DNA of 64,000 bases, taken from positions 36,580,001-36,644,000 of the forward strand of contig NC_091982.1 of assembly GCF_044704955.1 (NCBI RefSeq), given 5' to 3'. The notes under the pieces are model-generated. The model was given only the letters and a program-made list of their open reading frames with translations, made no database searches and was not told the origin of the DNA. A program made the position numbers and the translations under genes. Below, in pieces: positions 1 to 57,726 of the stretch. The stretch comes from Pristiophorus japonicus. Lineage: Eukaryota. Positions within the stretch are counted from its first letter, which is position 1. Each line of letters opens with the position of its first letter.

Positions 1-276
1 TGCACTGCTCTTCCTGTTGGTCTTCCATTCCCTATCTGGCTGTGGATCCTTTCCCTGCGGTACGACCAACTCGCTACACGTGATACTCACGTCATTCTCA
101 GCATCGTGGATGCTCCAGAGTGAATCCACCCTCAGCTCCAACTCCGCAACGCGGTCTGTCAGGAGCTGGAGGCGGATACACGTCCCGCACACGTAATCGT
201 CAGGGACACCGGAAGTGTCCCTGAGTTCCCACATGGTACAGGAGGAGCATAACACCCGACCGAGCTCTCCTGCCAT
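1..276 (-). CDS. CR1 ORF1p N-terminus (CxxC...CxxC zinc finger plus coiled coil), partial
   Basis: Manual translation; open from 276 to the window edge. Confidence 0.8.
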   Translation of the reverse strand, partial: MAGELGRVLCSSCTMWELRDTSGVPDDYVCGTCIRLQLLTDRVAELELRVDSLWSIHDAENDVSITCSELVVPQGKDPQPDREWKTNRKSSA

Positions 277-460
277 GACTTAACCCTTATATACACTTAA
301 ATTGGCAACAACAATGTTAAAAGTTACTCACTGATATAGAAGAGAAAAAAGAAAAACAACTCACCAATCACCAGCCAATCACTTACCCTCTTGGCTGTGA
401 CGTCACCTTTTGATTTCTTTCTACTTCTTTTTTGCCTTCTCCCTGTAGCTGCACAAGTAC

Positions 461-672
461 GCCTTTTATAGGCCTCTCCACGCACCTCCTCGACGCTGCT
501 CCCGACTGCCGCCGACACTGGGCCCCGGACTCCCTGCTGTGCCTTTTATAGGCCTCTCCACGCACCTCCTCGACGCTGCTCCCGCCGACGCTGGGCCCCG
601 GACTCCCTGCTGTGCCTTTTATAGGCCTCTCCACGCACCTCCTCGACGCTGCTCCCGACTGCCGCCGACGCT
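461..672 (-). promoter_or_regulatory. ~80-bp GC-rich tandem monomer array (x2.7), each unit with a TATA-like GCCTATAAAAGGC
   Basis: Units at 461-540, 541-613 and 614-672, each starting gccttttataggc on the plus strand. Promoter role is inferred. Confidence 0.7.
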
Positions 673-689
673 ACATACCTGTCTACATA

Positions 690-1380
690 CCTGATATCAA
701 CCGCAATGCCGTCATCCACCCTCTCCGTTTCTTCATCAGAGAACTCGATGAAACACGATTTGTCTTTAACAAATCCATGCTGACTGTCATTTATTAACCC
801 ATATTTTTCCAAGTGACAATTAATTGTGTCTTGGATTATTGTGTCTAAAAGTTCCCCCATCACTGACATTAGGCTGACTGGCATGTAAATGCCAGGTTTA
901 TCCCTCTCCCCTTTTTTGAACAGGGGTGGAGCATTTGCAATCCTCCAGTCCTCAGGTGCCTCTTGCATATCTAAGGAAGATTGGAAGATTGTGGCCAGAG
1001 CCTCTGCTATTTCCAGCCTTACTTCCCTCAGCAACCTAGGATGCATCCCATGGGTGCATTTCGACTTTAAGCACTGCCAACCTTTTAAGTACTTCTTTAT
1101 CTATTTTTATTCTATCCAATTTCTCTACTACCTCCTCCTTTACTGTGACATTGGCAGCATCCTCCTCTTTAGTGAAGACAGGTGTAAAGTACACATTTAG
1201 TACCTCAACCATGCCCCCTGCTTCCACAAGAAGATTTCCTTTTAAGTCTCCAATTGGCCTTGTCCTTTTTAGTATTTATATGTTTATAAAAGACTTTTGG
1301 GTTCACTTTTATGTTTTCCGCTATTCTATTCTCTTATACTCATTTGTGTCTGTGATTCTCCAAATGCGTTTGTATAGCAC
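690..1380 (-). mobile_element. Older CR1 ORF2 fragment (degenerate RT N-terminal region)
   Basis: ORFs 546-1046 and 1036-1227 contain HPRLLREV, EDWRIAN.PLFKKG, PVSL.SV and QHGFVK, with frameshifts. Confidence 0.9.
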
Positions 1381-1398: not shown

Positions 1399-3210
1399 GT
1401 CCCCTGCAGTCAGAATCAGGGGAAGTCATAACGGGGAACAAAGAAATGGCGGACCAATTGAACAAGTACTTTGGTTCGGTATTCACTGAGGAGGATACAA
1501 ACAACCTTCCGGATATAAAAGGGTTCGGAGGGTTTAGTAAGGAGGAGGAACTGAGGGAAATCCTTATTAGTCGGGAAATTGTGTTGGGGAAATTGATGGG
1601 ATTGAAGGCCGATAAATCCCCAGGGCCTGATGGACTGCATCCCAGAGTACTTAAGGAGGTGGCCTTGGAAATAGTGGATGCATTGACAGTCATTTTCCAA
1701 CATTCCATTGACTCTGGATCAGTTCCTATGGAGTGGAGGGTAGCCAATGTAACCCCACTTTTTAAAAAAGGAGGGAGAGAGAAAACAGGGAATTATAGAC
1801 CGGTCAGCCTGACATCGGTAGTGGGTAAAATGATGGAATCAATTATTAAGGATGTCATAGCAGTGCATTTGGAAAGAGGTAATATGATGGGTCCAAGTCA
1901 GCATGGATTTGTGAAAGGGAAATCATGCTTGACAAATCTTCTGGAATTTTTTGAGGATGTTTCCAGTAGAGTGGACAAGGGAGAACCAGTTGATGTGGTA
2001 TATTTGGACTTTCAGAAGGCTTTCGACAAGGTCCCACACAAGAGATTAATGTGCAAAGTTAAAGCACATGGGATTGGGGGTAGTGTGCTGACATGGATTG
2101 AGAACTGGTTGTCAGACAGGAAGCAAAGAGTAGGAGTAAATGGGGACTTTTCAGAATGGCAGGCAGTGACTAGTGGGGTACCGCAAGGTTCTGTGCTGGG
2201 GCCCCAGCTGTTTACACTGTACATTAATGATTTAGACGAGGGGATTAAATGTAGTATCTCCAAATTTGCGGATGACACTAAGTTGGGTGGCAGTGCGAGC
2301 TGCGAGGAGGATGCTATGAGGCTGCAGAGCGACTTGGATAGGTTAGGTGAGTGGGCAAATGCATGGCAGATGAAGTATAATGTGGATAAATGTGAGGTTA
2401 TCCACTTTGGTGGTAAAAACAGAGAGACAGACTATTATCTGAATGGTGACAGATTAGGAAAAGGGGAGGTGCAACAAGACCTGGGTGTCATGGTACATCA
2501 GTCATTGAAGGTTGGCATGCAGGTACAGCAGGCGGTTAAGAAAGCAAATGGCATGTTGGCCTTCATAGCGAGGGGATTTGAATACAGGGGCAGGGAGGTG
2601 TTGCTACAATTGTTCAGGGCCTTGGTGAGGCCACACCTGGAGTATTGTGTTCAGTTTTGGTCTCCTAACCTGAGGAAGGACATTCTTGCTATTGAGGGAG
2701 TGCAGCGAAGGTTCACCAGACTGATTCCCGGGATGGCGGGACTGAACTATCAAGAAAGACTGGATCAACTGGGCTTGTATTCACTGGAGTTCAGAAGAAT
2801 GAGAGGGGACCTCATAGAAACGTTTAAAATTCTGACGGGGTTAGACAGGTTAGATGCAGGAAGAATGTTCCCAATGTTGGGGAAGTCCAGAACCAGGGGA
2901 CACAGTCAAAGGATAAGGGGGATGCCATTTAGGACCGAGATGAGGAGGAATTTCTTCACCCAGAGAGTGGTGAACCTGTGGAATTCTCTACCACAGAAAG
3001 TTGTTGAGGCCAATTCACTAAATATATTCAAAAAGGAGTTAGATAAAGTCCTTACTACTAGGGGAATCAAGGGGTATGGTGAGAAAGCAGGAATGGGGTA
3101 CTGAAGTTGCATGTTCAGCCATGAACTCATTGAATGGCGGTGCAGGCTAGAAGGGCCGAATGGCCTACTCCTGCACCTATTTTCTATGTTTCTATGTTTC
3201 TATGTTTCTA
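1399..3210 (+). mobile_element. Young 5'-truncated CR1 LINE with (TTTCTATG)n tail
   Basis: Uninterrupted RT ORF, 3'UTR and tail at ~3178-3210; near-identical to the 53.4-57.5 kb copy. Confidence 0.97.
1446..3104 (+). CDS. CR1 ORF2 reverse transcriptase portion, open but 5'-truncated (no endonuclease)
   Basis: 552 aa with KSPGPDG, YRPVSLTS, YLDFQKAFDKV, GVPQGSVLGP and KFADD motifs. Confidence 0.92.
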   Translation: MADQLNKYFGSVFTEEDTNNLPDIKGFGGFSKEEELREILISREIVLGKLMGLKADKSPGPDGLHPRVLKEVALEIVDALTVIFQHSIDSGSVPMEWRVANVTPLFKKGGREKTGNYRPVSLTSVVGKMMESIIKDVIAVHLERGNMMGPSQHGFVKGKSCLTNLLEFFEDVSSRVDKGEPVDVVYLDFQKAFDKVPHKRLMCKVKAHGIGGSVLTWIENWLSDRKQRVGVNGDFSEWQAVTSGVPQGSVLGPQLFTLYINDLDEGIKCSISKFADDTKLGGSASCEEDAMRLQSDLDRLGEWANAWQMKYNVDKCEVIHFGGKNRETDYYLNGDRLGKGEVQQDLGVMVHQSLKVGMQVQQAVKKANGMLAFIARGFEYRGREVLLQLFRALVRPHLEYCVQFWSPNLRKDILAIEGVQRRFTRLIPGMAGLNYQERLDQLGLYSLEFRRMRGDLIETFKILTGLDRLDAGRMFPMLGKSRTRGHSQRIRGMPFRTEMRRNFFTQRVVNLWNSLPQKVVEANSLNIFKKELDKVLTTRGIKGYGEKAGMGY

Positions 3211-5204: not shown

Positions 5205-6201
5205 GATTACACTGTTTACACTGTACATTAATGATTTAGACGAGGGGATTAAATGTAGTATCTCCAAATTTGCGGATGACACTAAGTTGGGTGGCAGTGT
5301 GAGCTGCGAGGAGGATGCTATGAGGCTGCAGAGCGACTTGGATAGGTTAGGTGAGTGGGCAAATGCATGGCAGATGAAGTATAATGTGAATAAATGTGAG
5401 GTTATCCATTTTGGTGGTAAAAACAGAGAGACAGACTATTATCTGAATGGTGACAGATTAGGAAAAGGGGAGGCGCAACAAGACCTGGGTGTCATGGTAC
5501 ATCAGTCATTGAAGGTTGGCATGCAGGTACAGCAGGCGGTTAAGAAAGCAAATGGCATGTTGGCCTTCATAGCGAGGGGATTTGAGTACAGGGGCAGGGA
5601 GGTGTTGCTACAGTTGTACAGGGCCTTGGTGAGGCCACACCTGGAGTATTGTTTACAGTTTTGGTCTCCTAACCTGAGGAAGGACATTCTTGCTATTGAG
5701 GGAGTGCAGCGAAGGTTCACCAGACTGGTTCCCGGGATGGCGGGACTGACCTATCAAGAAAGACTGGATCAACTGGGCTTGTATTCACTGGAGTTCAGAA
5801 GAATGAGAGGGGACCTCATAGAAACGTTTAAAATTCTGATGGGTTTAGACAGGTTAGATGCAGGAAGAATGTTTCTAATGTTGGGGAAGTCCAGAACCAG
5901 GGGACACAGTCCAAGGATAAGGGGTAAGCCATTTAGGACCGAGATGAGGAGAAACTTCTTCACCCAGAGAGTGGTGAACCTGTGGAATTCTCTACCACAG
6001 AAAGTTGTTGAGGCCAATTCACTAAATATATTCAAAAAGGAGTTAGATGAAGTCCTTACTACTAGGGGGATCAAGGGGTATGGCGAGAAAGCAGGAATGG
6101 GGTACTGAAGATGCATGTTCAGCCATGAACTCATTGAATGGCGGTGCAGGCTCGAAGGGCCGAATGGCCTACTCCTGCACCTATTTTCTATGTTTCTATG
6201 T
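5205..6201 (+). mobile_element. Young 5'-truncated CR1 LINE
   Basis: C-terminal ~300 aa of RT in ORF 5083-6108, near-identical to 1446-3104; TTTCTATG tail. Confidence 0.96.
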
Positions 6202-6800
6202 TACACACACTCAGTTGTAGTAATGGCAGGATCAGATCTTTATTTAAGCCTCATACCACACAAAAACCAGTGTGAAAGTTACTGAGACATGAACCCCAAA
6301 GTTACTGAGTCATGTACTGCTAAAACAGTGTTCACTCACATCTCTTGTACAAAATTTTGCCTTTGAACACTACATTACATGCATACTATCAATAAATCAT
6401 GGTGCATCAAAGGTACATACAAATACTAACAGAATGACAATGTAAACTAAACAAACAGCCACTCAGCCTCCTGAAAACAGGCAATCGACTCTTGCCAGGC
6501 ATTCTATTAATATAACACACATGTGACCAAATTGACACATTCGAATATGGTTGAATAAATTTCACACCTTCTAGTATCTTCTTTCCTGTGAAGACATCCT
6601 CTGCTTTGATCTCGTACCCAATTTACAACCCATGCTCATCGGAAAGCTGCTTGAACTTTTAATCCTTCATGTGTCATCTCACAGACTGCGCAGAGAGCAA
6701 GGTATTCAGGTAATACAGACTTTTGCTCCCACAGCACCCAGAGAAGAAAATCTACCTTCACAAGATTCTACACAAAGGCTGTACCCAGAGCTGGAACAAT
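6199..6800 (-). mobile_element. Possible old LTR retrotransposon 3' end (LTR-like 6199-6379)
   Basis: TG...CA bounded segment with a minus-strand AATAAA; adjacent sequence encodes QERRY, like a Gypsy pol C-terminus. Weak. Confidence 0.3.
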
Positions 6801-19521: not shown

Positions 19522-20404
19522 ACAGGCTGCAGGGGGACTTGGACAGGTTAGTTTGAATGGGCAAATGCATGGCAGATGTAGTATAATGTGGATAAATATG
19601 AGGTTATCCACTTTGGTGGCAAAAACAGGAAGGCAGATTATTATCTGAATGGTGACAGATTAGTAAAAGGGGAGGTGCAACAAGACCTGGGTGTCATGGT
19701 ACATCAGTCATTGAAGGTAGGCATGCAGGTACAGCAGGCAGTAAAGAAAGCAAATGGCATACTAGCCTTCATAGCGAGGGGATTTGAGTATAGGAGCAGG
19801 GAGGTCTTGCTGCAGTTGTACAGGGCCTTGGTGAGACCACACCTTGAGTATTGTGTGCAATTTTGGTCTCCTAATCTGAGGAAAGACGTGCTTATTATTG
19901 AGGGAGTGTAGTTAAGGTTCACCAGACTGATTCCCAGGATGGCAGGACTGACAGATGAAGAAAGACTGGATCGGCTAGGCTTATACTCACTGGGATTTAG
20001 AAGAATGAGAGGGGATCTCATAGAAACGTATAAAATTCTGACGGGACTGGACAGGTTAGATGCAGGAAGAATGTTCCTGGTGTTGGGAAAGTCCAGAACC
20101 AGGGGACACAGTCTAAGGATAAGGGGTAAGCCATATAAGACCGAGATCAGGAGAAACTTTATCACCCAGAGAGTTGTGAACCTGTGGAATTCTCTGCCAC
20201 AGAAAGTTGTGGAGTCCAGTTCGTTGGACATATTCAAAAGGGAGTTAGATGTTGCCCTTACGGCTAAAGGGATCAAGGGGTATGGAGAGAAGGCAGGGGT
20301 GGGGTACTGAGGTTGCATGATCAGCCATGATCATGTTGAATGGCGGTGCAGGCTTGAAGGGCCGAATGGCCTGCTCCTGCATCTATTTTCTATGTTTCTA
20401 TGTT
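19522..20404 (+). mobile_element. 5'-truncated CR1, nested in the Harbinger-type element
   Basis: ORFs 19588-19911 and 19939-20310; TTTCTATG tail. Confidence 0.95.
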
Positions 20405-20782
20405 TATCTTGGTGATAAATGGCAGCGGTCCCCCCAGTGCCCTTCTCTGGTGTAGGACTCGGCGAAGGCATTTTAGTGAGGGCCTGCTCACCCTGGACAT
20501 GTAAATGAAGAGAGCGTGATGTCAATCGGCATGCCTTTGACCATAGTGTTGAGTTCGACGCTAAGACCTAAGCTCACTCTGAAAAGCGAGTGTTCAGCAG
20601 ACTGATGGAAACGCTGTCAGCACTTCTTAAAGGAACACACAGATCTTTCAGGTAAATTTAAATTTAAGCTTTTGGACTGGATGTTTAAAATGTTTTTAAA
20701 TAGTGGTTAAACGTTTTGTAAGTGTGCAGGGAGTGCTGCTGGATTACAGCAAGGCCTCAGATGATAAAGGAAGGCCTCTGAG

Positions 20783-28890: not shown

Positions 28891-31800
28891 CATCATCATA
28901 GGCAGTCCCTCGGTGACTGAACAGTCCAATACGAGAATCACAGTCCCTGTCACAGGTCATTGAGGGAAAGGATGGGTGGGACTGGTTTGCCGCACGCTCT
29001 TTCAGCTGCCTGTGCTTGATTTCTGCACGCTCTCGGCGTTGAGACTCGAGGTGCTCAGCGCCCTCCCAGATGCATTTCCTCCAGTTAGGGCGGTCTTTGG
29101 CCAGGGACTCCCAGGTGTCGGTGGGGATGTTGCACTTTATCAAGGAGGCTTTGAGGGTGTCCTTGAAACGTTTCCTCGGCCCACCTTTGGCTCATTTGCT
29201 GTGAAGGAGTTCCGAGTAGAGCACTTGCTTTGGGAGTCCTGTGTCAGACATGCGAACAATGTGGCCTGCCCAGCGGAGCTGATCGAGTGTGGTCAATGTT
29301 ATGTCTTTAACCCTTTGTAACCTGCATGACACCTGACCAACAGAGCTGCAAATCCTGCAAACCACCATGTTGCAGAGGAAGTTCGATCTACAATGGATCA
29401 GGCTGAATTGGAGACTCGTACTAAGGAGTCACAAGTGTACGGGGTACACACGTTCACGACAAAATGTCCACCAATAATGTTGAAAGTTGAACTGAACGGA
29501 ATTCCAGTATCTATGGAGCTGGACATGGGGGCAAGTCAATCCATAATGAGTAAAAAGGCCTTCGACAGGCTGTGGGGAAATAAGGCACAAAGGCCCAAGC
29601 TCAGCCCCATTCACACCAAACTAAGGATTTACACCAAGGAACTAATCCCTGTAATTGGCAGTGCAGAAGTCAAAGTTTCCTACGACGGAGCAGTACATGA
29701 ACACCCGCTGTAGATTGTACCAGGGGATGGCCCCACGTTGTTTGGCAGAAGCTGGCTGGGAAAAATCTGCTGGAGCTGAGACGACATCCGAACGCTTTTG
29801 TCAGTCGATGACGCCTCATGTACCCAGGTTCTGAGCAAGTTCCCATCGTTGTTCGAACCAGGCATTGGAAGCTTATTAGGGGCGAAAGTGCAGATCCATT
29901 TGGTTCCCGGTATGCTACCCATCCACCACAAGGCACGGGCGGTACCGTACATGATGCGTGAAAAAGTGGAAATTGAGCTGCAACGTGAAGGCATTATCGC
30001 GCCAGTGGAATTCAACGACTGGGCCAGTCCGATTGTCCCGGTATTCAAGGAGGATGGCACGGTTAGAATTTGTGGGGACTATAAAGTAACAATTAACCAT
30101 TTTTCGCTGCAGGATCAGTACCCCGCTACCCAAGGCTGATGACCTATTTGCGACCCTGGCTGGAGGGAAGACGTTCACCAAGCTGGACCAGACTTCAGCC
30201 TACGTGACGCAGGAGCTGGAGGAGTCTTCGAAAGGCCTCACCTGAATCAACACGCACAAAGGTCTGTTTATGTACAACCGGTGCCCGTTCGGGATTCTTG
30301 CAGCGGAACATGGAGCGCCTACTAAAGTCGGTTCCTTCAACAGTGGTCTTCCAGGACGACATATTGGTTATAGGTCGGGACTCCGTGGAGCGCTTGAAGA
30401 ATCTGGAGGAGGTTCTTAGTCAGTTGGATCGCGTGGGACTCAGGTTGAAACGCTCGAAGTGTGTTTTCCTGGCACAGGACGTCGAATTCTTGGTAAGGAG
30501 AATCACGGCAGATGGCATCAGACCCACCGACGTCAAGACGGAGGCCATCAAGAACGCGCTGAGACCACAGAACGTGACAGAGCTGCGGTCGTTCCTGGGA
30601 CTCCTTAACTATTTCGGTAATTTCCTACCTGGGTTAAGTACTCTGCTAGAACCCTTAAATGCGCTACTGCGCAAGGGAGATGATTGGGTATGGGGGAATT
30701 CATAAGAGGCTGCCTTTAAGAAAGCCAGAAATCTGTTGTGTGCTAACAAATTGCTTGTCCTGTATAACCCTTGTAAACGATTAGTGCTAGCTTGCGATGC
30801 GTCGTCATACGGGGTCGGGTGTGTGTTACAATAGGCTAACGAATCGGGGATTTTGCAACTGGTCGCTTATGCGTCCAGGAGTTTGTCCAAGGCCAAAAGG
30901 GCTTCCAGCATGGTTGAAAAAGAAGCTCTGGCGTGCGTTTATGGGTAAAAAAAATGCACCAGTACTTACTTGGCCTCAAGTTTGAGTTTGAAACTGACCA
31001 CAAGCCGCTCATATCGCTGTTCTCTGAGAGCAAAGGGATTAATACCAATGCCTCTGCCCTCATTCAAAGATAGGCGCTCATGCTGTCGGCATACAACTAT
31101 GTAATTCGCCACAGACCAGGCACAGAGAACTGCGCAGATGCTCTCAGTCGGCTGCCATTGCCCACCACTGGGGTGGAAATGGCACAGCCAGCGGACTTGC
31201 TCATGGTCATGGAGGCATTCGAGAAGACCCCTTTACGGCCCACCAGATCAGGACCTGGACCAGCCAGGATCCTTTATTGTCCTTGGTAAAACAAACTGTG
31301 TCCTCCATGGGAGCTGGTCCAGTGTCCCAGTGGAGATGCAGGAAGCAATTAAGTCGTTCCACAGACGCAAAGACGAGTTGTCCCTGCAGGCGGACTGTCT
31401 ATTGTGGGGGAATCGCGTGGTCTTGCCCAAGAAAGGCAGAGATACGTTCATATGTGAACTGCACAGCACCCACCCAGGCATTGTAATCATGAAAGCCATA
31501 GCCAGATCCCATGTGTGGTGGCCCAGCATCGACTCTGATTTAGAGTCATGTGTGCGGCAGTGCAACACTTGCTCTCAGCTGAGCAATGCACCCAGAGAGG
31601 CACCGTTAAATTTGTGGTCGTGGCCCTCCAAACCGTGGTCGAGGATCCATGTAGACTATGTGGGCCTATTTCTAGGCAAAATGTTTTTGGTTGTCATGGA
31701 CGCGTACTCAAAATGGATTGAATGTGCAATAATGTCTGTAAGCACGTCCACGGCCACCATTGAAAGCCTACGAGCCATGTTTGCCACGCACGGCCTACTG

Positions 31801-33038
31801 ATGTCCTAGTCAGCGACAATGGGCCGTGCTTCACATGTCACATCTGCCCCGTTCAAGTACGCACCCAATGGCCAGGCAGAACGGGTAGTTCAGACCATCA
31901 AGCAAAGCTTGAAACGTGTGTCGGAAGGCTCCCTGTAGATCCGGTTGTCCCGAGTGCTGCTCAGCTACCGCACCAGACCCCACTCACTCACCGGGGCTCC
32001 CCCAGCTGAGCTGCTCATGAAAAGGGTGCTTGAAACAAGGCTCTCTCTTGTCCACCCTGATCTCCATTATCACGTGGAGGGCAAGCGGCATCAACAGAGT
32101 GTGTACCATACTGTGCAAATTTGTCACGCGATATTGAGATCAATGGTCCTGTGTTTGTGCTCAATTATGGACATGTTCCCAAATGGCTTGTTGGCATGGT
32201 CACAGCCAAAGATGGGAGTAGGGTGTTCCAGATCAAATTGGCCAATGGACAAACGCACAGAAAACATTTGGACCAAATCAAATTGCAGTTCACCAACAGC
32301 TACAAACAACCCGAAGAGGACACCACCAACTTTGACCCTCCAAGACACACAAGTGGCAACTGACATCATGGCTGACCACGAAACCAAACTCATCATCCCC
32401 AGCAGCCCGGCAAGGCCGGCTGCTCAACAGCCCAGTGAAGAGCTGACCAACCCACCCACAGCCGCGTTTGTACCGAGACCATCGACAGGGGAGCGTAAAG
32501 CCCAGATCGTCTCACCTTGTAAATAAGTGTACTACTGACTTCACGGAGGAGTGATGTTATGTATTTAACCCTTTGTAACCTGCATCACATGACCACCAGA
32601 GAGCTTACCTGTTGGAGTCCCAAGGGATCCCAGCATCCCTTGGGAGCACAGTATATAAGCAGGCCACCCACGAGGTACTGACACTCTGGAATCTTATTAA
32701 AGGAGCTAAGGTCACACTTGCTCATTGCACACAGTGCTCAGCCTCACCCTTTACTATGGGATAACAGTCAGTGCTGGGGATGTTGGCCTGGTCGAGGACG
32801 CTAACGTTGGTGCATCTGTCCTCCCAGGGGATTTGCAGGATCTTGCGGAGACATCGTGGGTGGTATTTCCCCAGGCAGACAAGGGCAGACATTGACGACG
32901 AGATTCAACACTGCCTCCAGTGCTGCCTTCGGCTGCCTGAGGAAAAGAGTGTTCAGAGACCAGGGCCTCAAATCTACTGCCAAGCTCATGGTTTACAGGG
33001 TTGTAGAAATACCCACCCTCCTATACGGCTCAGAAACA
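28891..33038 (-). mobile_element. RTE LINE insertion with inverted 5' segment and 11-bp TSD, split by a Gypsy element
   Basis: (CAT)n tail at 28891; minus-strand RT C-terminus at 28891-29296 and 32767-32870; plus-strand RADIDDEIQ...LLYGSET at ~32875-33038; TSD TTATCCTGTAT at 28880-28890 and 33039-33049. Confidence 0.9.
29297..32766 (+). mobile_element. Gypsy (Mag-like) LTR retrotransposon with pseudogenised pol; most of the 5' LTR and gag deleted
   Basis: TSD GTCAA/GTCAG; 3' LTR 32555-32766 after a purine tract. Protease (LDMGAS), RT (WASPIV, ICGDY, FQDD), RNase H (DAS, ETDHKPL, ADALSR), integrase (HPG..H..C..C, IHVDY, SDNGP). Confidence 0.95.
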
Positions 33039-35598
33039 TTATCCTGTATATCGATTACTGGAATGTGTCACATGCTGTCATATGATTTGCTTCTTTTCAG
33101 TAAGTGGACTGAATGTACATTCTCACTCGATTGAAACTAGGCTTTCAACTAACAAAGGGTTTTATTTACACAAGACAGACGATGAACAGTAAGCAGTACA
33201 ACACAGTGCTGCATACATTACTCTTTTAAAACACAGTTGGCATACTGAAACTGGCTGTAGCCCGACTCCCAGGTAAAATAGGTTTCCCATAGAAATACAA
33301 TCCGACCTCCTTTAAAGTATACATAAACAAAGAAAATAGATGAATGCATCAATTGTGGATCAACAGCTATTCACAAGTTATCAATTATAATAATTATTGT
33401 TATCTGTGTCAACACAAAGACCACGGCCACTTTGAGTGACAAATGGAGACGTCTAGTTGTGGAAATCTGGAACTCGCTCCCTCAAATTGAAAATTTAAAA
33501 ACTGAGATTAATAGGTTTAATTTTGGCTGCAGCCATAAAACTGTTGTTTGAAGATTGACCACCTGTTGTACACCCTCCCCGATATTACAGAACATTGACC
33601 AAGAAGAATTGGACGGTGTATGACGGGAGGTGTGACAGGAGGAGTGATGGGGGCGGGGGCATGTGTGTGTGTGACCGGCGGGTGGGGAACGTGCCGGGGG
33701 ATTACCGGGGGCGCGGGTGGGGGGGAGAAGTGACCGAGGGTTTGACAGAGGGTGACCGGGGTCTAAGAGGTGACGGAGCGGGTGAGGGGGGGGGGGAGTG
33801 ATGGAGGGGTGGGGGGGTGTACCGGGGGTGTGATGGAGGTGGTGTAATGGGGGGAGCGGTGACAGGGTGACGGGGGTGTGATGGGGAGGTGATGGGGAGG
33901 GGGTGAAGGGCGACAGTGACAAGGGAGGGGGTGATTGGCGGGGATGAAGGTGGCATGATGGGTGTGACGGGGGAGTTGGGACGGGCGGGGTGCTGTGGGT
34001 TGTGAAGAGGCGGATGTCCGGGCTGTGCAACGGTGGGGGGGGGGGGGGTGTGACTGGGGGTGTGATGGGGGAGTGATGGGGGGGGGGTGCGGGGTGATGG
34101 GGGTTTGATGGCGGGGTGACAGGGGTGGGGCGGCGTGGCGGCCCCGATCTGCGAGAGACCATCAGCGGCAGGTCGGGGCCATAAAAGGAGCGGCGAGCAG
34201 CAGCCATGGGCAGCGTGGCGGTGTACCACGGCAAGGTACAGCGCGAGCTGGTGCAGGAGGGCAACGGCAGCGAAGAGGGACATCATCAAGGTCCAGGTCG
34301 GAGGGAGGGTTTGATGGGGGTGCAGCGGGCGGGAGAGTGACGGAGGGTTTGGGACAGTGGGGGGTGACGGGGGAGGGGGGTGATTGGCGAGAATGAAGGG
34401 GGCGTGATGGGGGCTGAAGGAGGAGTTGGGACGGGCGGGGTGATGAGGGTGTGAGGAGGCGGGTGTCCGGGATGTGCAACGGGGGGGTGTGATGGGGGGG
34501 GGGGGGGCTGTGACGAGAGGATATGACGGGGTGGTGTGACGGGGGGTGTGACGGGGTGTGTGACGAGGGGATATGACGGGGGGGTGTGATGGGTGGGTGA
34601 CGGGGTGTGTGACGTGTGTGACAGGATGTGTGACGGGGGTGTGTGACGGGGTGTGTGATGGGGTTGTGTGATGGGGGGTGACAGAGGCGGGTGTGTGACG
34701 GGCGGGGGGTGATGGGGTTGTGTGATGGGGTGTGTTATGGGGAGGTATGACGGGGGTGTGTATTGGGGGGTGATGGGGTGTGTGACGGGCTGTGAGACGG
34801 GGGGATATGACGGGGTGGGGTGATGGGGGTGTGTGATGGGGGTGTGTAATTGGGGGGGTGATGAGGTGTGTGACGGGGGTGTGTGATTGGGGGGGTGACG
34901 AGGTGTGTGACGGGGGGGTGTGATTGGGGGGGTGATGGGGTGTTTGACGGGGGTGTGTGATTGGGGGGGATGACGGGGTGTGACAGGATGTGTGATTGGG
35001 GGGGTGACAGGGTGTGCGACGAGGTGTGTGACGGGGGTGTGTGATGGGGGTGACAGCGGGGGGGGTGTGACGGGTGGGGGGTGATGGGGGTGTGATGGGG
35101 TGTGTTATGGGGGGTTATGACGGGGGGTGTAATGGGGGGTGATGGGGTGTGTGATGGGCTGTGAGACGGGGGTTGTGATAGGGTATGTGACAGGGTGTGT
35201 GATGGGCGGGGCGGGGGGAGGATAGGGGGTGTGATGGGAGAGGTATGACGAGGGGTGTGACAGGGTATGATGGGATGTGTGACCAGCGGGGGAATGACGG
35301 GGTGTGATCGGGGGGGGGAGGTATGATGGGTGAGTGACGGGGTGAGTGACGGGGTGTGTGACGGGGGGCTTTAACGGGGGGGTGTGATCTGTTATGATGG
35401 GGGCTGTGACAGGGGGTGTAATGGGGTGTATGACGGGGGTGTGACGGAGGGCTGTGACGGGGTGAGTGACAGGGTGAGTGACGGGGTAAGTGAAGTGGGG
35501 TGTGACGGAGGGTGTGATCAGGGATGACAGGGGGTGTGACGGGGGGTGTAACGGGTTGAATGACAAGGTGTGTGATGGGGGTATGACGGGGGGTGTGA

Positions 35599-37043
35599 CA
35601 TAGGAACATAGAAACATAGAAAATAGGTGCAGGAGTAGGCCATTCGTCCCTTCGAGACTGCACCGCCATTCAATGAGTTCATGGCTGAACATGCAACTCA
35701 GTACCCCATTCCTGCTTTCTTGCCATACCCCTTGATCCCCCTAGTCGTAAGGACTACATCTAACTCCTTTTTGAATATATTTAGTGAATTGGCCTCAACA
35801 ACTTTCTGTGGTAGAGAATTCCACAGGTTCACCACTCTTTGGGTGAAGAAGTTTCTCCTCATCTCGGTCCTAAATGGCTTACCCCTTATCCTTAGACTGT
35901 GACCCCTGGTTCTGGACTTCCCCAACATTGGGAACATTCTTCCTGCATCTAACCTGTCTGAACCCATCAGAATTTTAAATGTTTCTATGAAATCCCCTCT
36001 CATTCTTCTGAACTCCAGTGAATACAATCCCAGTTGATCCAGTCTTTCTTGATATGTCAGTCCCGCCATCCCGGGAATCAGTCTGGTGAACCTTCGCTGT
36101 ACTCCCTCAATAGCAAGAATAGCAAGTTAGGAGACCAAAACTGTACACAATACTCCAGGTGTGGCCTCACCAAGGCCTTGTACAACTGTAGTAACACCTC
36201 CCTGCCCCTGTACTCAAATCCCCTCGCTATGAAGGCCAACATGCCATTTGCTTTCTTAACCGCCTGCTGTACCTGCATGCCAACCTTCAATGACTGATGT
36301 ACCATGACACCCAGGTCTCATTGCACCTCCCCTTTTCCTAATCTGTCACCATTCAGATAATAGTCTGTCTCTCTGTTTTTACCACCAAAGTGGATAACCT
36401 CACATTTATCCACATTATACTTTATCTGCCATGCATTTGCCCACTCACCTAACCTATCCAAATCACTCTGCAGCCTCATAGCATCCTCCTCGCAGCTCAC
36501 ACTGCCACCCAACTTAGTGTCATCCGCAAATTTGGAGATATTACATTTAATCCCCTCGTCTAAATCATTAATGTACAATGTAAACAGCTGGAGCCCCAGC
36601 ACAGAACCTTGCGGTACCCCACTAGTCACTGCCTGCCATTCTGAAAAGTACCCATTTACTCCTACTCTTTGCTTCCTGTCTGCCAACCAGTTCTCAATCC
36701 ACGTCAGCACACTACCCCCAATCCCATGTGCTTTAACTTTGCACATTAATCTCTTGTGTGGGACCTTGTCGAAAGCCTTCTGAAAGTCCAAATACACCAC
36801 ATCAACTGGTTCTCCCTTGTCCACTCTACTGGAAACATCCTCAAAAAATTCCAGAAGATTTGTCAAGCATGATTTCCCTTTCACAAATCCATGCTGACTT
36901 GGACCTATCATGTCACCTCTTTCCAAATGCGCTGCTATGACATCTTTAATAATTGATTCCATCATTTTACCCACTACCGATGTCAGGCTGACCGGTCTAT
37001 AATTCCCTGTTTTCTCTCTCCCTCCTTTTTTAAAAAGTGGGGT
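35599..37043 (-). mobile_element. Young 5'-truncated CR1 inserted in the G-rich array
   Basis: ORFs 35698-36069, 36078-36305 and 36318-36974; (CATAGAAA)n tail at the left edge. Confidence 0.96.
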
Positions 37044-37259
37044 GTGACGGAGTGAGTGACAGGGTGAGTGACGGGGTGAGTGACAGGGTGTGTGAAGTGG
37101 GGTGTGATAGGTGTGTGACGGGCAGAGGGGATGATGGGGTGTGATGGGGTGTGACAGGGGTTGTGAGGGGGGGGAGATGATGGGGGTTGAGTGTGACGGG
37201 GGGTGACGGGGTGGGGGTGTTATTTACATAAGCACATTATGGGCACTTGAAGTGCTGTA

Positions 37260-38408
37260 ACCTATAGGATACGGACCGAGAGCTGGCAAGTGGGATTAGA
37301 CTGGATCATCATCATCATAGGTGGTCCCTCGAACGAGGATGACTTGCTTCCACAAGAGTTCATAGATGTTTCAATGAAGGACCTGATATTCCAGTCCTGA
37401 ACTCCAGTTGAAAGGGTGGAAGAATCCTGTGCGTGGATTTTTTTAACGTGTGGAGACCATTGCACATCAGCCACCACATGGGCCTTTATCCGGTGGCAAG
37501 GGTTAACCAGGATGACTGGAGACCTGCTCTGCTGCACGGACCTAGTGCGCACACATATCGCGGTGTGGGCTGGCCCCTGCTGCCCCTGGGCCCTCGGCTC
37601 TTCTGGGCCCCATACTCTCATTTGCCGTACCTCTGCCACAATCTCTCGCCGCTCCTCCGCCATGATCTCCCACCGCACCTCTGCACCAAACATTCGCCAA
37701 ACCTCCGCCACGCTTACCCACCAAACTTCAGCCACGATCCGTGGCCCTCCCGACCTGCGAGAGAACATCTCCGCAGGTCGCGAAGTATAAGAGCTGGAGC
37801 GGCATACCACTGCAACTTCCAGCACGAGCTGGTCCAGGTATGCGACGGCTTCATGTTGGGCGATTGGGTAATGTCATCAGGACCCAGGTCGCTGTTTGGA
37901 GCATGGGCAGGAACATTGGCGGGGCCCAGGTACAGCAGAGGAGCGGGAAGGTTGTGGCGGAGGTGCAGCGAGTGATTGAGTTGGAGGAGCGTTAAGACTG
38001 GATAACCTCTTGTTGGCTGGCGCAGATATAATGGTAAGTACTTCAGGGAATCTAATACGGCGAGAGTGATCTCCTGGGCTAGTTTCGATCGCCTAGATGG
38101 GTTGGCAGGAATTTTCCGATTTTTTTTCCCCAATTGGCCTGGGTTTTCATCTGTTTTTTTGCCTCTCCCAGGAGATCGCATGGTGTGGAGTGTAAAATGT
38201 TGTGATGCATGGGGTGTGACAGATGTGTGGGGGCGGACTGGTTGGGCTGGGTGCTCTTTACCTGTCCACCATTGTACATTGTTCATAGGTTTATATGTAA
38301 CCTTCAGAGAGCTGCTAACTGAGGGCCGTGTGGCTCTTTGTCGGCTGGCGTGGTCAAGATGGGCTGAAATGGCCTCCTTCTGCGCTGTAAATTTCTATGT
38401 TTCCATGT
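37260..38408 (+). mobile_element. CR1-type 3' end with extended 3'UTR, interrupted by an RTE-derived element
   Basis: GYG..AGKWD* end, terminal gatgggctgaaatggcctccttc and TTTCTATG tail at ~38392. Confidence 0.65.
37307..37994 (-). mobile_element. Non-autonomous RTE-derived element with inverted 5' part and 9-bp TSD
   Basis: Tail catcatcatcatagg..gtccctcgaa..gagga.gacttgcttccac matches the RTE 3' end at 40750-40796; TSD AGACTGGAT at 37298-37306 and 37995-38003; no RT coding sequence. Confidence 0.8.
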
Positions 38409-39779
38409 TATGGGGGAATGACGGCGCTTGACATGGGGGGTGAAGGCACGTGACAGGGGTGGGGTGTGACAGGGCATGTGATGGGCGGGATGATGGAGGG
38501 TGACGGGGCATGATGATGGGGGGGGGTGACGGGGGTGTTAGGATGGGCGTGAGGGTGACGGGATGTGACAGGGGGTTGACGGGGGGCGGGGATGATGGGG
38601 GGGTGATGGGGTGTGTGACGGAGAGTGACGAGGCGTGACGGGGGTGACGGGGGGGATGATGGATAGGGTGATGGGGATTGTGAGAGGAATGGTGAAGGGG
38701 GGGGTTGAAGGGGGGGTTGATGGGTGGGTGATGGGTTTGTAAGGGGGGATGACAGGGTGGACGGGCAAAGGAATGATGGGAGGAGTGTTGGGGTGGGTGT
38801 GACCGGGGGGGGGAGGGGGGGTGAGGGGCTGACGGACGGTTTGATGGGGGTGTGACTGGCGGGTGTGATGAGCGGGAGCGTGATGATGTGTGACGAAGAG
38901 TGACTGGGTGTGACAGGTCGTGATGGGGTGATGGGGTGTGACGAGCTGTGATGGGGGTGACGGGGGAGAGGGGGGGTGACGGTGTGACGGGGGGGGTGAC
39001 GAGGTGTGACGGGGTGTGATGGGTGTGACGAGGGTGATGGGGGTTACGGGGTGTGCTGGGGGGGAGGGGGGGCGACGGGCTCTGAGCAACTAATACTTCA
39101 AGACCAATTCCTTCCTTTGCAAATTCACGATGTGCTTAAATTGAAACTGCACTCAGCAAAAAAAAACAAATGTATATATCTACTCAAATAACATTTGCTT
39201 TATTTACTGCTTTGATGGCATGCAGCTGGCTAGGTTCTGTTGATAACATTTATTTGCCTGACTGTTGTACTTTTGTCAAGGGGCTTGATAGCCAGAGAAA
39301 AATGTAATATGTGATAGCCAATGCCAAATTGAGCTGTTTTAACCGGAGGTCTGACGGCACAATTTACAGATCAGGCAAGGTCAGAGCCGGTCATCACAGT
39401 TATCAAAAACCATCAAGATCTCTTAGTGCCCCTGGCTTCTATGTTAAAAACTTGCTGCAAGCATATGTGTCAGCAGGTTAACCAGAGAATGAATGCTTTT
39501 CAGAGTCTTGGAAAATATTTATAGTTAAAGGCGCTATATAAATGCAAGTTGTTGCTGCCTCAAATAGTTTGCGTATCCCTAAAGAAAGATTTTGGAGACT
39601 TACAAATAATCATAGAGGTGAGCGATTGAGGTTTTCCCAGTATTCTGTGTTGTAGAAGACTATTAAGCCCAATATCTGGACAGTCAGTACAATCATTAGT
39701 ATTTGTTGCTACAACAAAGAACAATACCATTCGATGATATGACACAAAAGTGACTGCAGATCACAAAGGACAAACCATA

Positions 39780-43530: not shown

Positions 43531-43680
43531 GGCACATCATTTGAGAGGGAGAGTGCAGCAGGGCAAACAACCGGTGAAAACTGATTTCACACAAATAGTT
43601 AAATCTTCTGCCATTTTGTAGTTCAATGTTCAGTGTTCATTGTTACATGGTTAGACTAGATTCTGCAATTTGGTCGGATA

Positions 43681-46372: not shown

Positions 46373-46400
46373 GTGCTATACTGTAACATTAGATTGTTAC

Positions 46401-53423: not shown

Positions 53424-53580
53424 AGTTGGTGAGAGGCAGGAGCGGCCTATAAAAGGCCCAGCGGGAGATCGAGAGCCAGCGGCAGTTGGTGAGAGGCGGG
53501 AGCGGCCTATAAAAGGCCCAGCGGGAGATCGAGAGCCAGCGGCAGTTGGTGAGAGGCGGGAGCGGCCTATCAAAGGCGTA
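53424..53580 (+). promoter_or_regulatory. 60-bp tandem monomer array (x2.6) with TATA-like GCCTATAAAAGGC
   Basis: Units start at 53424, 53484 and 53544. Promoter role is inferred. Confidence 0.7.
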
Positions 53581-54439
53581 CGGTGTCCATGAGGACTACG
53601 TGTGTGAGAAGTGCATCCGCCTCGAGCTCCTGACGGTCCGCTTTGCGAAATTGGAGCTGAGGGTGGATTCACTCTGGAGCATCCACGATGCTGAGAATGA
53701 CGTGAGTATCACGTGTAGTGAGTTGGTCTTACCGCAGGAGAAGGGTCCACAGCCAGATAGGGAATGGAAGACCAGCAGGAAGAGCAGTGCAAGGAAGGTA
53801 GTGCAGGGGTCCCCTGTGGTCATCCCCCTGCAAAACAGATACACCGCTTTGAGTACTGTTGGGGGGGATGACTCATCAGGGGAGGGCAGCAGCAGCCAAG
53901 TTCATGGCACCGTGGCTGCTCTGCTGCACAGGAGGGCAGGAAAAAGAGTGGGAGTGGTGAGGGGAATAGATAGACGTTTCTGCGGCCGCAACCGAGACTC
54001 CAGGATGGTATGTTGCCTCCCTGGTGCAAGAGTCAAGGATGTCTCGGAATGGGTGCAGGACATTCTGAAATGGGAAGGAGAACAGCCAGTTGTCGTGGTG
54101 CACATTGGTACCAACGACATAGGTAAAAAAAGGGATGAGGTCCTACGAAACGAATTTAAGGAGCTAGGAGCTAAATTAAAAAGTAGGACCTCAAAAGTAG
54201 TAATCTCGGGATTGCTACCAGTGCCACGTGCTAGTCAGAGTAGGAATCGCAGGATAGCGCAGATGAATACGTGGCTTGAGCAGTGGTGTAGCAGGGAGGG
54301 ATTCAAATTCCTGGGGCATTGGAACCGGTTCTGGGGGAGGTGGGACCAGTACAAACCGGACGGTCTGCACCTGGGCAGGACCGGAACCAATGTCCTAGGG
54401 GGAGTGTTTGCTAGTGCTGTTGGGGAGGAGTTAAACTAA
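53581..54439 (+). pseudogene. CR1 ORF1p (zinc finger/coiled coil plus SGNH esterase) lacking its start and the GDS block
   Basis: CLPGA, VHIGTND and DGLH esterase blocks present; N-terminal MAGEL...CSSC absent relative to the copy at 1-276; no GDS before VRGID. Confidence 0.85.
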
Positions 54440-54516
54440 TATGGCAGGGGGATGGGAACCAATGCAGGGAGACAGAGGGAGACAAAAAGGAGGCAAAAGC
54501 AAAAGACAGAAAGGAG

Positions 54517-57422
54517 ATGAGGAAAAGTGGAGGGCAGAGAAACCCAAGGCAAAGAACAAAAAGGGCCACTGTACAGCAAAATTCTAAAAGGACAAAGGGT
54601 GTTAAAAAAACAAGCCTGAAGGCTTTGTGTCTTAATGCAAGGAGTATCCACAATAAGGTGGATGAATTAACTGTGCAAATAGATGTTAACAAATATGATG
54701 TGATTGGCATTACGGAGACGTGGCTCCAGGATGATCAGGGCTGGGAACTCAACATCCAGGGGTATTCAACATTCAGGAAGGATAGAATAAAAGGAAAAGG
54801 AGGTGGGGTAGCATTGCTGGTTAAAGAGGAGATTAATGCAATAGTTAGGAAAGACATTAGCTTGGATGATGTGGAATCTATATGGGTAGAGCTGCAGAAT
54901 ACCAAAGAGCAAAAAACATTAGTGGGAGTTGTGTACAGACCTCCAAACAGTAGTAGTGATGTTGGGGAGGGCATCAAACAGGAAATTAGAGGTGCATGCA
55001 ATAAAGGTGCAGCAGTTATAATGGGTGACTTTAATATGCACATAGATTGGGCTAGCCAAACTGGAAGCAATATGGTGGAGGAGGATTTCCTGGAGTGCAT
55101 AAGGGATGGTTTTCTAGACCAATATGTCGAGGAACCAACTAGGGGGGAGGCCATCTTAGACTGGGTGTTGTGTAATGAGAGAGGATTAATTAGCAATCTC
55201 ATTGTGCGAGGCCCCTTGGGGAAGAGTGACCATAATATGATGGAATTCTGCATTAGGATGGAGAATGAAACAGTTAATTCAGGGACCATGGTCCAGAACT
55301 TAAAGAGGGGTAACTTTGAAGGTATGAGGCATGAATTGGCTAGGATAGATTGGCAAATGATACTTAAGGGGTTGACTGTGGATGGGCAATGGCAGACATT
55401 TAGAGACTGCATGGATGAATTACAACAATTGTACATTCCTGTCTGTCGTAAAAATAAAAAAGGGAAGGTGGCTCAACCGTGGCTATCTAGGGAAATCAGG
55501 GATAGTATTAAAGCCAAGGAAGTGGCATACAAATTGGCCAGAAATAGCAGTGAACCTGGGGACTGGGAGAAATTTAGAAATCAGCAGAGGAGGACAAAGG
55601 GTTTGATTAGGGCAGGGAAAATGGAGTACGAGAAGAAGCTTGCAGGGAACATTAAGGCGGATTGCAAAAGTTTCTATAGGTATGTAAAGAGAAAAAGGTT
55701 AGTAAAGACAAACGTAGGTCCCCTGCAGTCAGAATCAGGGGAAGTCATAACGGGGAACAAAGAAATGGCAGACCAATTGAACAAGTACTTTGGTTCAGTA
55801 TTCACTAAGGAGGACACAAACAACCTTCCGGATATAAAAGGGGTCAGAGGGTCTCGTAAGGAGGAGGAACTGAGGGAAATCTTTATTAGTCGGGAAATTG
55901 TGTTGGGGAAATTGATGGGATTGAAGGCCGATAAATCCCCAGGGCCTGATGGACTGCATCCCAGAGTACTTAAGGAGGTGGCCTTGGAAATAGCGGATGC
56001 ATTGACAGTCATTTTCCAACATTCCATTGACTCTGGATCAGTTCCTATGGAGTGGAGGGTAGCCAATGTAACCCCACTTTTTAAAAAAGGAGAGAGAGAG
56101 AAAACAGGGAATTATAGACCGGTCAGCCTGACCTCAGTAGTGGGTAAAATGATGGAATCAATTATTAAGGCTGTCATAGCAGCGCATTTGGAAAATGGTG
56201 ACATGATAGGTCCAAGTCAGCATGGATTTGTGAAAGGGAAATCATGCTTGACAAATCTTCTGGAATTTTTTGAGGATGTTTCCAGTAAAGTGGACAAAGG
56301 AGAACCAGTTGATGTGGTATATTTGGAATTTCAGAAGGCTTTCGACAAGGTCCCACACAAGAGATTAATGTGCAAAGTTAAAGCACATGGAATTGGGGGT
56401 AGTGTGCTGACATGGATTGAGAACTGGTTGTCAGACAGGAAGCAAAGAGTAGGAGTAAATGGGTACTTTTCAGAATGGCAGGCAGTGACTAGTGGGGTAC
56501 CGCAAGGTTCTGTGCTGGGGCCCCAGCTGTTTACTTTGTACATTAATGATTTAGATGAGGGGATTAAATGTAGTATCTCCAAATTTGCGGATGACACTAA
56601 GTTGGGTGGCAGTGTGAGCTGCGAGGAGGATGCTATGAGGCTGCAGAGTGACTTGGATAGGTTAGGTGAGTGGGCAAATGCATGGCAGATGAAGTATAAT
56701 GTGGATAAATGTGAGGTTATCCATTTTGGTGGTAAAAACAGAGAGACAGACTATTATCTGAATGGTGACAGATTATGAAAAGGGAAGGTGCAACGAGACC
56801 TGGGTGTCATGGTACATCAGTCATTGAATGTTGGCATGCAGGTACAGCAGGCGGTTAAGAAAGCAAATGGCATGTTGGCCTTCATAGCGAGGGGATTTGG
56901 GTACAGGGGCAGGGAGGTGTTGCTACAGTTGTACAGGGCCTTGGTGAGGCCACACCTGGAGTATTGTGTACAGTTTTGGTCTCCTAACTTGAGGAAGGAC
57001 ATTCTTGCTATTGAGGGAGTGCAGCGAAGATTCACCAGACTGATTCCCGGGATGGTGGGACTGACCTATCAAGAAAGACTGGATCAACTGGGCTTGTATT
57101 CACTGGAGTTCAGAAGAATGAGAGGGGACCTCATAGAAACGTTTAAAATTCTGACGGGTTTAGACAGGTTAGATGCAGGAAGAATGTTCCCAATGTTGGG
57201 AAGTCCAGAACCAGGGGTCACAGTCTAAGGATAAGGGGTAAGCCATTTAGGACCGAGATGAGGAGAGACTTCTTCACCCAGAGAGTGGTGAACCTGTGGA
57301 ATTCTCTGCCACAGAAAGTGGTTGGGGCCAATTCACTAAATATATTCAAAAGGGAGTTAGATGAAGTCCTTACTATTCGGGGGATCAAGGGGTATGGCGA
57401 GAAAGCAGGAAGGGGCTATTGA
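54517..57422 (+). pseudogene. CR1 ORF2p (APE endonuclease plus RT) with nonsense and frameshift lesions
   Basis: NARS, ITETW, GGGV, VYRPP, GDFN, SDH and RT motifs. TGA at 56776-56778 (GGA in sibling copies), YLDF changed to YLEF, 1-bp deletion at ~57200. Confidence 0.93.
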
Positions 57423-57726
57423 AGTTTCATGTTCAGCCATGAACTCATTGAATGGCGGTGCAGGCTAGAAGGGCTGAATGGCCTGCTCCTGCACCTATTT
57501 TCTATGTTTCTATGTTTCTATGCCATTGACAAACATATTTCAAAGGATGCAGGTATATAATTAAAATTAAATGGAACATAATACAGTCAGTGCATGAACA
57601 CTAGTGTTTGACGAAGAACTTTGGGTTCCGCTAACAATGCATCAAAGGATTCGCTACACTCCAGACAATATTTATACTTCTAATACTTCTAAATAAGCGT
57701 GATTCCTTCATAATCGTTCACACAGC

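Follow-up and report, generated by a model that had tools for sequence, protein, structure and literature searches.

Because upstream DNA is lost when a LINE is copied from RNA, its promoter is expected to be internal and TATA-less. The window analysed here (64,000 nucleotides, positions 36580001-36644000 of contig C6, in a genome of 5.9-Gb whose repeats look shark-like) contains two CR1 elements, A and B, which belong to one ORF2 lineage (95.7% identical over 3,965 nt) and are headed by distinct tandem arrays of monomers with TATA-like boxes. The locus raises the question of how a box lying upstream of the RNA start could serve such elements, and of how two close relatives came to carry different arrays. 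The explanation that we consider probable combines a relay of TATA-bearing monomers, rebuilding of the arrays at the DNA level, reshuffling of the monomers of A and B, and capture of entire 5' modules elsewhere in the family. Each monomer of 58-90 bp, with its one TATA-like box, would start a capped RNA ~31 nt downstream; a new copy would arrive without the box from which it was launched, with the boxes behind retained, such that each unit would fire the next, and the array would be rebuilt in DNA by unequal exchange or slippage.

Structure of elements A and B

ORF2 of these elements encodes an APE endonuclease (PF03372) and a reverse transcriptase (RT, PF00078), and ORF1 an esterase (PF13472, E 2e-12; all by Pfam), both as in vertebrate CR1 LINEs, and the 3' tails consist of 8-nt or 7-nt units. 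A short-unit 3' tail, no poly(A) and no regular long target site duplication (TSD) are hallmarks of CR1; a long recurrent TSD, sought to fix the junctions in the fetched copies, was found in none of them, a single 8-nt TSD being present at L302. The RT trees comprise copies of this genome only, and the CR1 label rests on architecture.

Arrays of ~80-bp units in A and 60-bp units in B had been proposed in a preliminary description, and both are real, TRF giving a period of 73/80 on the minus strand for A and of 60, with 97% matches, for B (53424-53577). The features of both elements are listed in Table 1. Element A ends 5' at the A at 672, which lies at +32 from an absent upstream box. Its ORF1 is complete in locus L173, which extends past the window to a TTTCTATG-type tail, and its ORF2 is fragmented into pieces of 421 and 454 aa. 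The last box of element B is TATCAAAG, the deletion behind its array took the spacer, the ORF1 ATG and ~19 codons, and its ORF2 has a premature stop at 56776-56778. Both elements are dead copies, ORF2 being broken in each. Element A is hosted by an older CR1 RT fragment (window 673-1100 and the 3' flank of L173), and a 12-nt tandem duplication is located immediately outside its 5' end.

Table 1. Features of elements A and B in the window, and loci of the recipient lineage
Feature	Position or locus	Strand	Remarks
Element A 5' monomer array	461..672	-	80-bp type and one 73-bp deletion unit
Element A boxes, first T	623, 550, 470	-	Motif positions
Element A spacer (tether)	277..460	-	184-nt, array to ORF1; family-conserved
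Element A ORF1 start	1..276	-	ATG at 276; zinc-finger-like Cys motifs followed by esterase
Element B 5' monomer array	53424..53580	+	60-bp type; 5' end phase +37
Element B boxes	53448, 53508, 53568	+	Motif positions
Element B predicted starts	A 53478, A 53538	+	
Element B deletion junction	53578..53586	+	~248 nt gone between CCGGTG copies, compared with intact relative
Element B ORF1 remnant	53581..54439	+	SGNH/GDSL esterase, PF13472, E 2e-12
Element B ORF2	54415..57422	+	APE endonuclease PF03372, RT PF00078
Element B 3' tail	57497..57522	+	8-nt TTTCTATG units
Stacked native recipients	L255, L256, L257, L275, L288; also L265, L266		
ORF1-truncated recipients	L227, L228, L232, L235, L236, L240, L241, L245, L246		
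ORF1-truncated recipients, rest	L258, L259, L271, L281, L284, L285, L287, L292		

The spacer (window 277-460, minus strand) contains a CRE-like palindrome and two CCAAT boxes in reverse orientation, together with sequences resembling splice donors and acceptors. We take TGACGTCA at 405, the reverse CCAAT boxes at 380 and 369 and the donor-like GTAAGT/GTGAGT near 387 and 365 to be candidate motifs, and the family spacer could possibly act as an enhancer, an antisense promoter or an intron. Further 5'-truncated CR1 copies in the window (1399-3207, 5212-6202, 19525-20405, 35601-37043, 43677-46379 and 47371-49635) span at least three ORF2 lineages, that at 43677-46379 being 76% and 69% identical to the two main ORF2 lineages. 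Broken gag/pol-like ORFs of gypsy-type LTR retrotransposons, as judged by eye, are located at 30208-32526, 46829-47323 and 50108-50650, and G-rich degenerate minisatellite tracts of 10-13-bp units, with a CR1 fragment in between, occupy 34034-39079.

Monomer types in the CR1 family

A 27-nt motif of the family spacer has 10,376 exact matches in the genome (control 0). The first 100 listed places on contig C1 were fetched together with element A, 101 in all, and removal of 10 segmental duplicates and element A left a blind sample of 90. The first 4 Mb of C1 (L091-L105, L195-L208) harbour large segmental duplications, in which CR1 insertions are repeated with identical flanks. A TATA-like box occurs within 260 nt in 77 of the 90 elements, and the 13 boxless ones begin in the spacer or in the last partial unit; arrays were recognised by TRF in 54 of the 101 fetched elements, before deduplication. 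The monomers, whose absence from other CR1 5' ends would have spoken against a promoter role, thus recur in the blind sample, and both types are found genome-wide, with 372 A-type and 605 B-type candidates (40 scored of each).

Clustering at 88% identity resolves the monomers into 18 types of 58-90 bp, each with one box and with a median identity of 0.70 among types; element B joins type T02 at 0.90. The box is the sole element fixed at position 1 across all types. The remainder is built largely from shared words in varying order: 9-mers of other types cover 88% of the monomer body bases, compared with 34% (maximum 50%) in dinucleotide shuffles, and some arrays (L113, L142, L111 and L136) are of mixed type. 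Mutation at the box positions was not consistently lower than in the rest of the monomer, the result being mixed.

The A and B arrays had been described as differing outside a shared core while heading a nearly identical ORF1. Their monomers are instead related beyond the core, at 67% identity with gaps over 176 nt (0.66 global), and ORF1 identity amounts to 91% for the 211 nt inside the window and 92.9% overall, below the 97.1% of the ORF2 RT. A and B do both finish their arrays in AAAGGCGTAC, as had been noted; this ending is not general, other types meeting the spacer at other phases. That the two promoters are unrelated and one was captured from elsewhere, as in the A/F replacement of mouse L1, would agree with their different lengths and low global identity, with the wholesale swaps seen in the family and with an unrelated ~320-bp unit stacked in some of its members (see below). 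It is nevertheless very improbable, given that A and B align beyond the core, that types T17, T04 and T06 are intermediate (0.71-0.82 identity to B) and that all bases of the A and B monomer bodies fall in 9-mers of other types. Reshuffling inside one homologous monomer family is the better reading of this pair, and rapid monomer evolution, one of the two origins initially suggested, accounts for it. The other, promoter swapping, fits A and B less well and is met with between other lineages of the family, where the whole 5' module was swapped.

Monomer type was compared with the phylogeny, as had been advised. It tracks the RT tree, imperfectly, with 13 type changes over 48 rows (minimum 8, shuffled mean 30), and the ORF1 tree requires 21 over 57 rows (minimum 9, shuffled mean 38). 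Turnover of the monomers is much faster than that of the body, since the young groups T01, T02 and T03 are 96-98% identical to B in RT and their monomers only 0.51-0.73 alike. A young type, TGTCAAAAG, is common, with 9 of the 90 elements, and 47 of 278 boxes read TACAAAAG, so that spread does not depend on a canonical TATA.

Phase and first base of the 5' ends

Phase was scored in the 65 elements with a well-aligned array, leaving out 25 of rare type, short or truncated. In 40 of them the 5' end follows the first T of the missing upstream box by 28-38 nt (+28 to +38), where 9.6 would be expected; the interval was picked after the phases were seen, and 40 or more were reached in none of 200,000 simulations. 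The best 11-nt interval holds 42/65 ends when counted from the upstream box versus 23/65 from the downstream box. The remaining 25 ends fall outside +28 to +38, and the sets of top hits are more spread (15/28 and 9/14). The ends set in abruptly at +30 to +32 and trail off to ~+45, from which we infer a fixed start with small losses at insertion. A TATA-Inr core promoter of RNA polymerase II starts ~30 nt past the first T of the box, and both the left edge and the A at +31/+32 match this spacing.

Reverse transcriptase reaching a cap can leave a G, and among A-type copies starting exactly at +32 a G occupies -1 in 40 of 54. The corresponding figure for B/T02-type copies starting exactly at +31 is 50/72, or 40/62 without likely duplicates, compared with control values of 16/62 at +35 (some being internal variants) and 0/4 at +54 (Fisher p 3e-7 and 3e-5). 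In element A the base before the 5' end is not G. Twenty of the 40 G-preceded +32 sites were fetched, and all 20 are genuine 5' ends. Empty sites could be rebuilt for four, the G being templated by the target in two and extra in two; target-templated sites weaken the signal and do not remove it, because a cap-derived base would also favour G targets. At the predicted start behind the last box, one position examined in four copies, G was found in 0/4, and at +37 of the B type, examined as a second candidate capped start, in 2/5, too few copies to judge. A literature search for reports of a cap-derived G where LINE copies begin yielded nothing usable. The G excess is of the kind that a capped start would leave, and is indirect evidence for one. 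Together with the clustering of 5' ends it matches the earlier proposal of a start ~30 nt past a TATA.

Two other accounts of the phase were weighed. The start might depend on an initiator, or on a factor site further downstream, within the transcript (compare YY1 in mouse L1), the TATA-like box being incidental. A GGCGGGAG word at +37 to +48 in 11/19 types, C-A steps at the start sites and the continued activity of TGTC and TAC box variants fit this alternative, which is unlikely in view of the box alone being kept at position 1 in all types. Furthermore, T03 and T07 have only positions 1-38 in common and both start at +32, T07 without GGCGGGAG near its start, and the start moves to +36/37 in TGTC arrays. 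RNA processing or stalling of the reverse transcriptase at a 5' ribozyme or fold could also generate a phase in arrays that are neutral minisatellites, and arrays of up to 50 units do behave in a minisatellite-like manner in DNA. We regard this as hardly probable at all, as the sequence near the start varies by type at a constant distance from the box and the G excess is confined to +31/32. A relay running from TATA-like boxes is well supported by what DNA alone can reveal, and use of TBP and promoter activity would be its presumed basis.

Box variants offer a further view of the start. Among 33 scored of the 34 fetched T02-group copies starting at +31, the next box is TATAAA in 19, TATCAA in 10, TGTCAA in three and another in one. 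Blind-sampled T02 copies, none of which starts at +31, have TGTC boxes in 6/9 (p 0.001 against the 3/33); this deficit among +31 starts is suggestive, the two samples having been selected differently. The frequency of TGTC boxes among blind T02 copies indicates that a poor box is no bar to the spread of a type.

Length and regrowth of the arrays

Arrays in the blind sample have mostly 1-4 boxes, the longest 17, and those of the top hits reach ~50 units. Copies of the same insertion differ by one unit in L111/L112 and in L093 versus L096 and L100, which implies that array length changes in DNA after insertion. Such differences show change, not its direction, and a net gain of units is presumed. 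Regrowth through end-to-end template jumps was also considered and is unsupported, an extra internal G occurring in 0/189 A-type and 0/551 B-type matches, in which overlapping loci were counted repeatedly. The 50-unit B-type array of L045/L046 (C3:283049936-283052988) consists of alternating blocks of 59- and 60-bp units, an alternation that suggests duplication of blocks of ~10 units. In L170 a copy of the array-spacer junction is located inside the array and the monomers resume at a short overlap, this being a duplication that took in the start of the spacer.

Capture of the 5' module by a second lineage

One branch of the RT tree is ~70% identical to the remaining copies and contains chimeras. 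Compared with A, these are mostly 90-98% identical in ORF1 and the ORF2 leader and 81-94% in the spacer, and identity falls to 53-70% from the start of the endonuclease. The 90 copies comprise 25 chimeras, 57 of donor type and eight unclassified. In 11 chimeras the donor endonuclease start is retained, and the leader and endonuclease native to the recipient follow it, with a 4-nt GGAA overlap at the join; this order gives the direction of capture. The other 14, with a short junction, may derive from a deletion or go back to a second event. Template switching is the presumed route, and assembly artefacts are an unlikely source of junctions present in thousands of copies.

A motif of the recipient leader has 5,595 matches. 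Among the first 30 listed, about half of which belong to duplicate groups, 26 carry the captured module and four a native ORF1 (~69% identical), and native recipient ends have 545 exact matches; the chimera is several-fold commoner than its native parent in the sample. Types T07, T12, T06, T17 and T01-like are found on both lineages, and 4 of 20 fetched copies combine an A-like array with a recipient ORF2; this suggests that exchange between the lineages went on.

In native recipients the spacer is homologous and the 77-bp unit related, whereas the ~320-bp unit upstream of them is unrelated (Table 1). The full stack consists of spacer, 77-bp TACAAAG units (up to ~14), a second tether and the ~320-bp unit, the last with an AP-1-like site and a TTTAAAA box, and this stacking looks like promoter accretion. 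The spacer motif set described for element A is kept even in this native lineage. ORF1 is truncated in 9/30 recipients, which are headed by a TATA-less 38-bp array. Arrays of this subfamily consist of 37-38-bp units, up to 93, joined ~170 nt before the ORF1 stop, and a single phase of their 5' ends is not obvious.

These exchanges invite a broader model, offered tentatively and at less than even chances. The promoters would be combinatorial, a fixed TATA-to-start ruler being set amid freely recombining 7-10-nt factor-binding words, giving rise to dozens of types. Units and modules would be traded between ORF2 lineages 30% apart, and captures of a better promoter might sweep, driven by host silencing or tissue choice.

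Comparison with known systems

HeT-A and Penelope likewise use an upstream copy as promoter for the sequence behind it (PMC2377424, with HeT-A as cited there); there a neighbouring element supplies the promoter with its 3' UTR, whereas here it would be a dedicated 5' unit. Canonical vertebrate CR1 elements share the esterase ORF1 and APE-RT ORF2 (PMC13343379), and reticulate evolution of ORF1 has been described in CR1/L2 (PMC4120745). In a 2026 survey, some ORF1-less elements of the CR1 group have 100-500-bp repeats, numbering 1-5, close to the 5' UTR (PMC13343379), unlike the arrays described here, which head ORF1-bearing elements; the words monomer, promoter and TATA have no occurrences in that survey. 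No paper on TATA monomer arrays in CR1 was found in a search whose scope lay outside most subscription journals and Repbase notes. The diversity of monomer types and the documented module capture are the additions made here.

Mouse L1Md (A, Gf and Tf) is the closest parallel in organisation, with monomer promoters and a tether. Tandem monomers, a conserved tether before ORF1 and phased 5' ends are common to both systems, as are variable unit numbers of up to ~50 and mixed, mismatched promoter types, and unequal crossing-over has been proposed for expansion of the mouse arrays (PMC6454616, PMC9022269). The mouse units measure ~200 bp and their starts lie close to YY1 or AP-1 sites, whereas those described here are 58-90 bp with a TATA-like box upstream of the start, and 'TATA' has no occurrences in the main texts of these two papers. 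The host in mouse is an element of the L1 clade with TATA-less units, and here an esterase-ORF1 CR1 element with at least 18 coexisting types. An upstream TATA relay would be an alternative solution to promoter loss in LINEs, and the question raised by mouse L1, of arrays spent and rebuilt, is testable here, where the units are short, the start base is predicted, copies number in the thousands and box mutants occur naturally.

In mammalian L1, 5' UTR replacement exchanges front ends while ORF2 persists, the new UTR being non-homologous and families succeeding one another (PMC5381506). Here, in contrast, the array, spacer, ORF1 and leader of a sister CR1 were taken whole with the scar visible, and donor, recipient and chimera coexist. 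With the scar kept and all three in one genome, the family documents with unusual clarity the capture of a promoter and ORF1 by a LINE.
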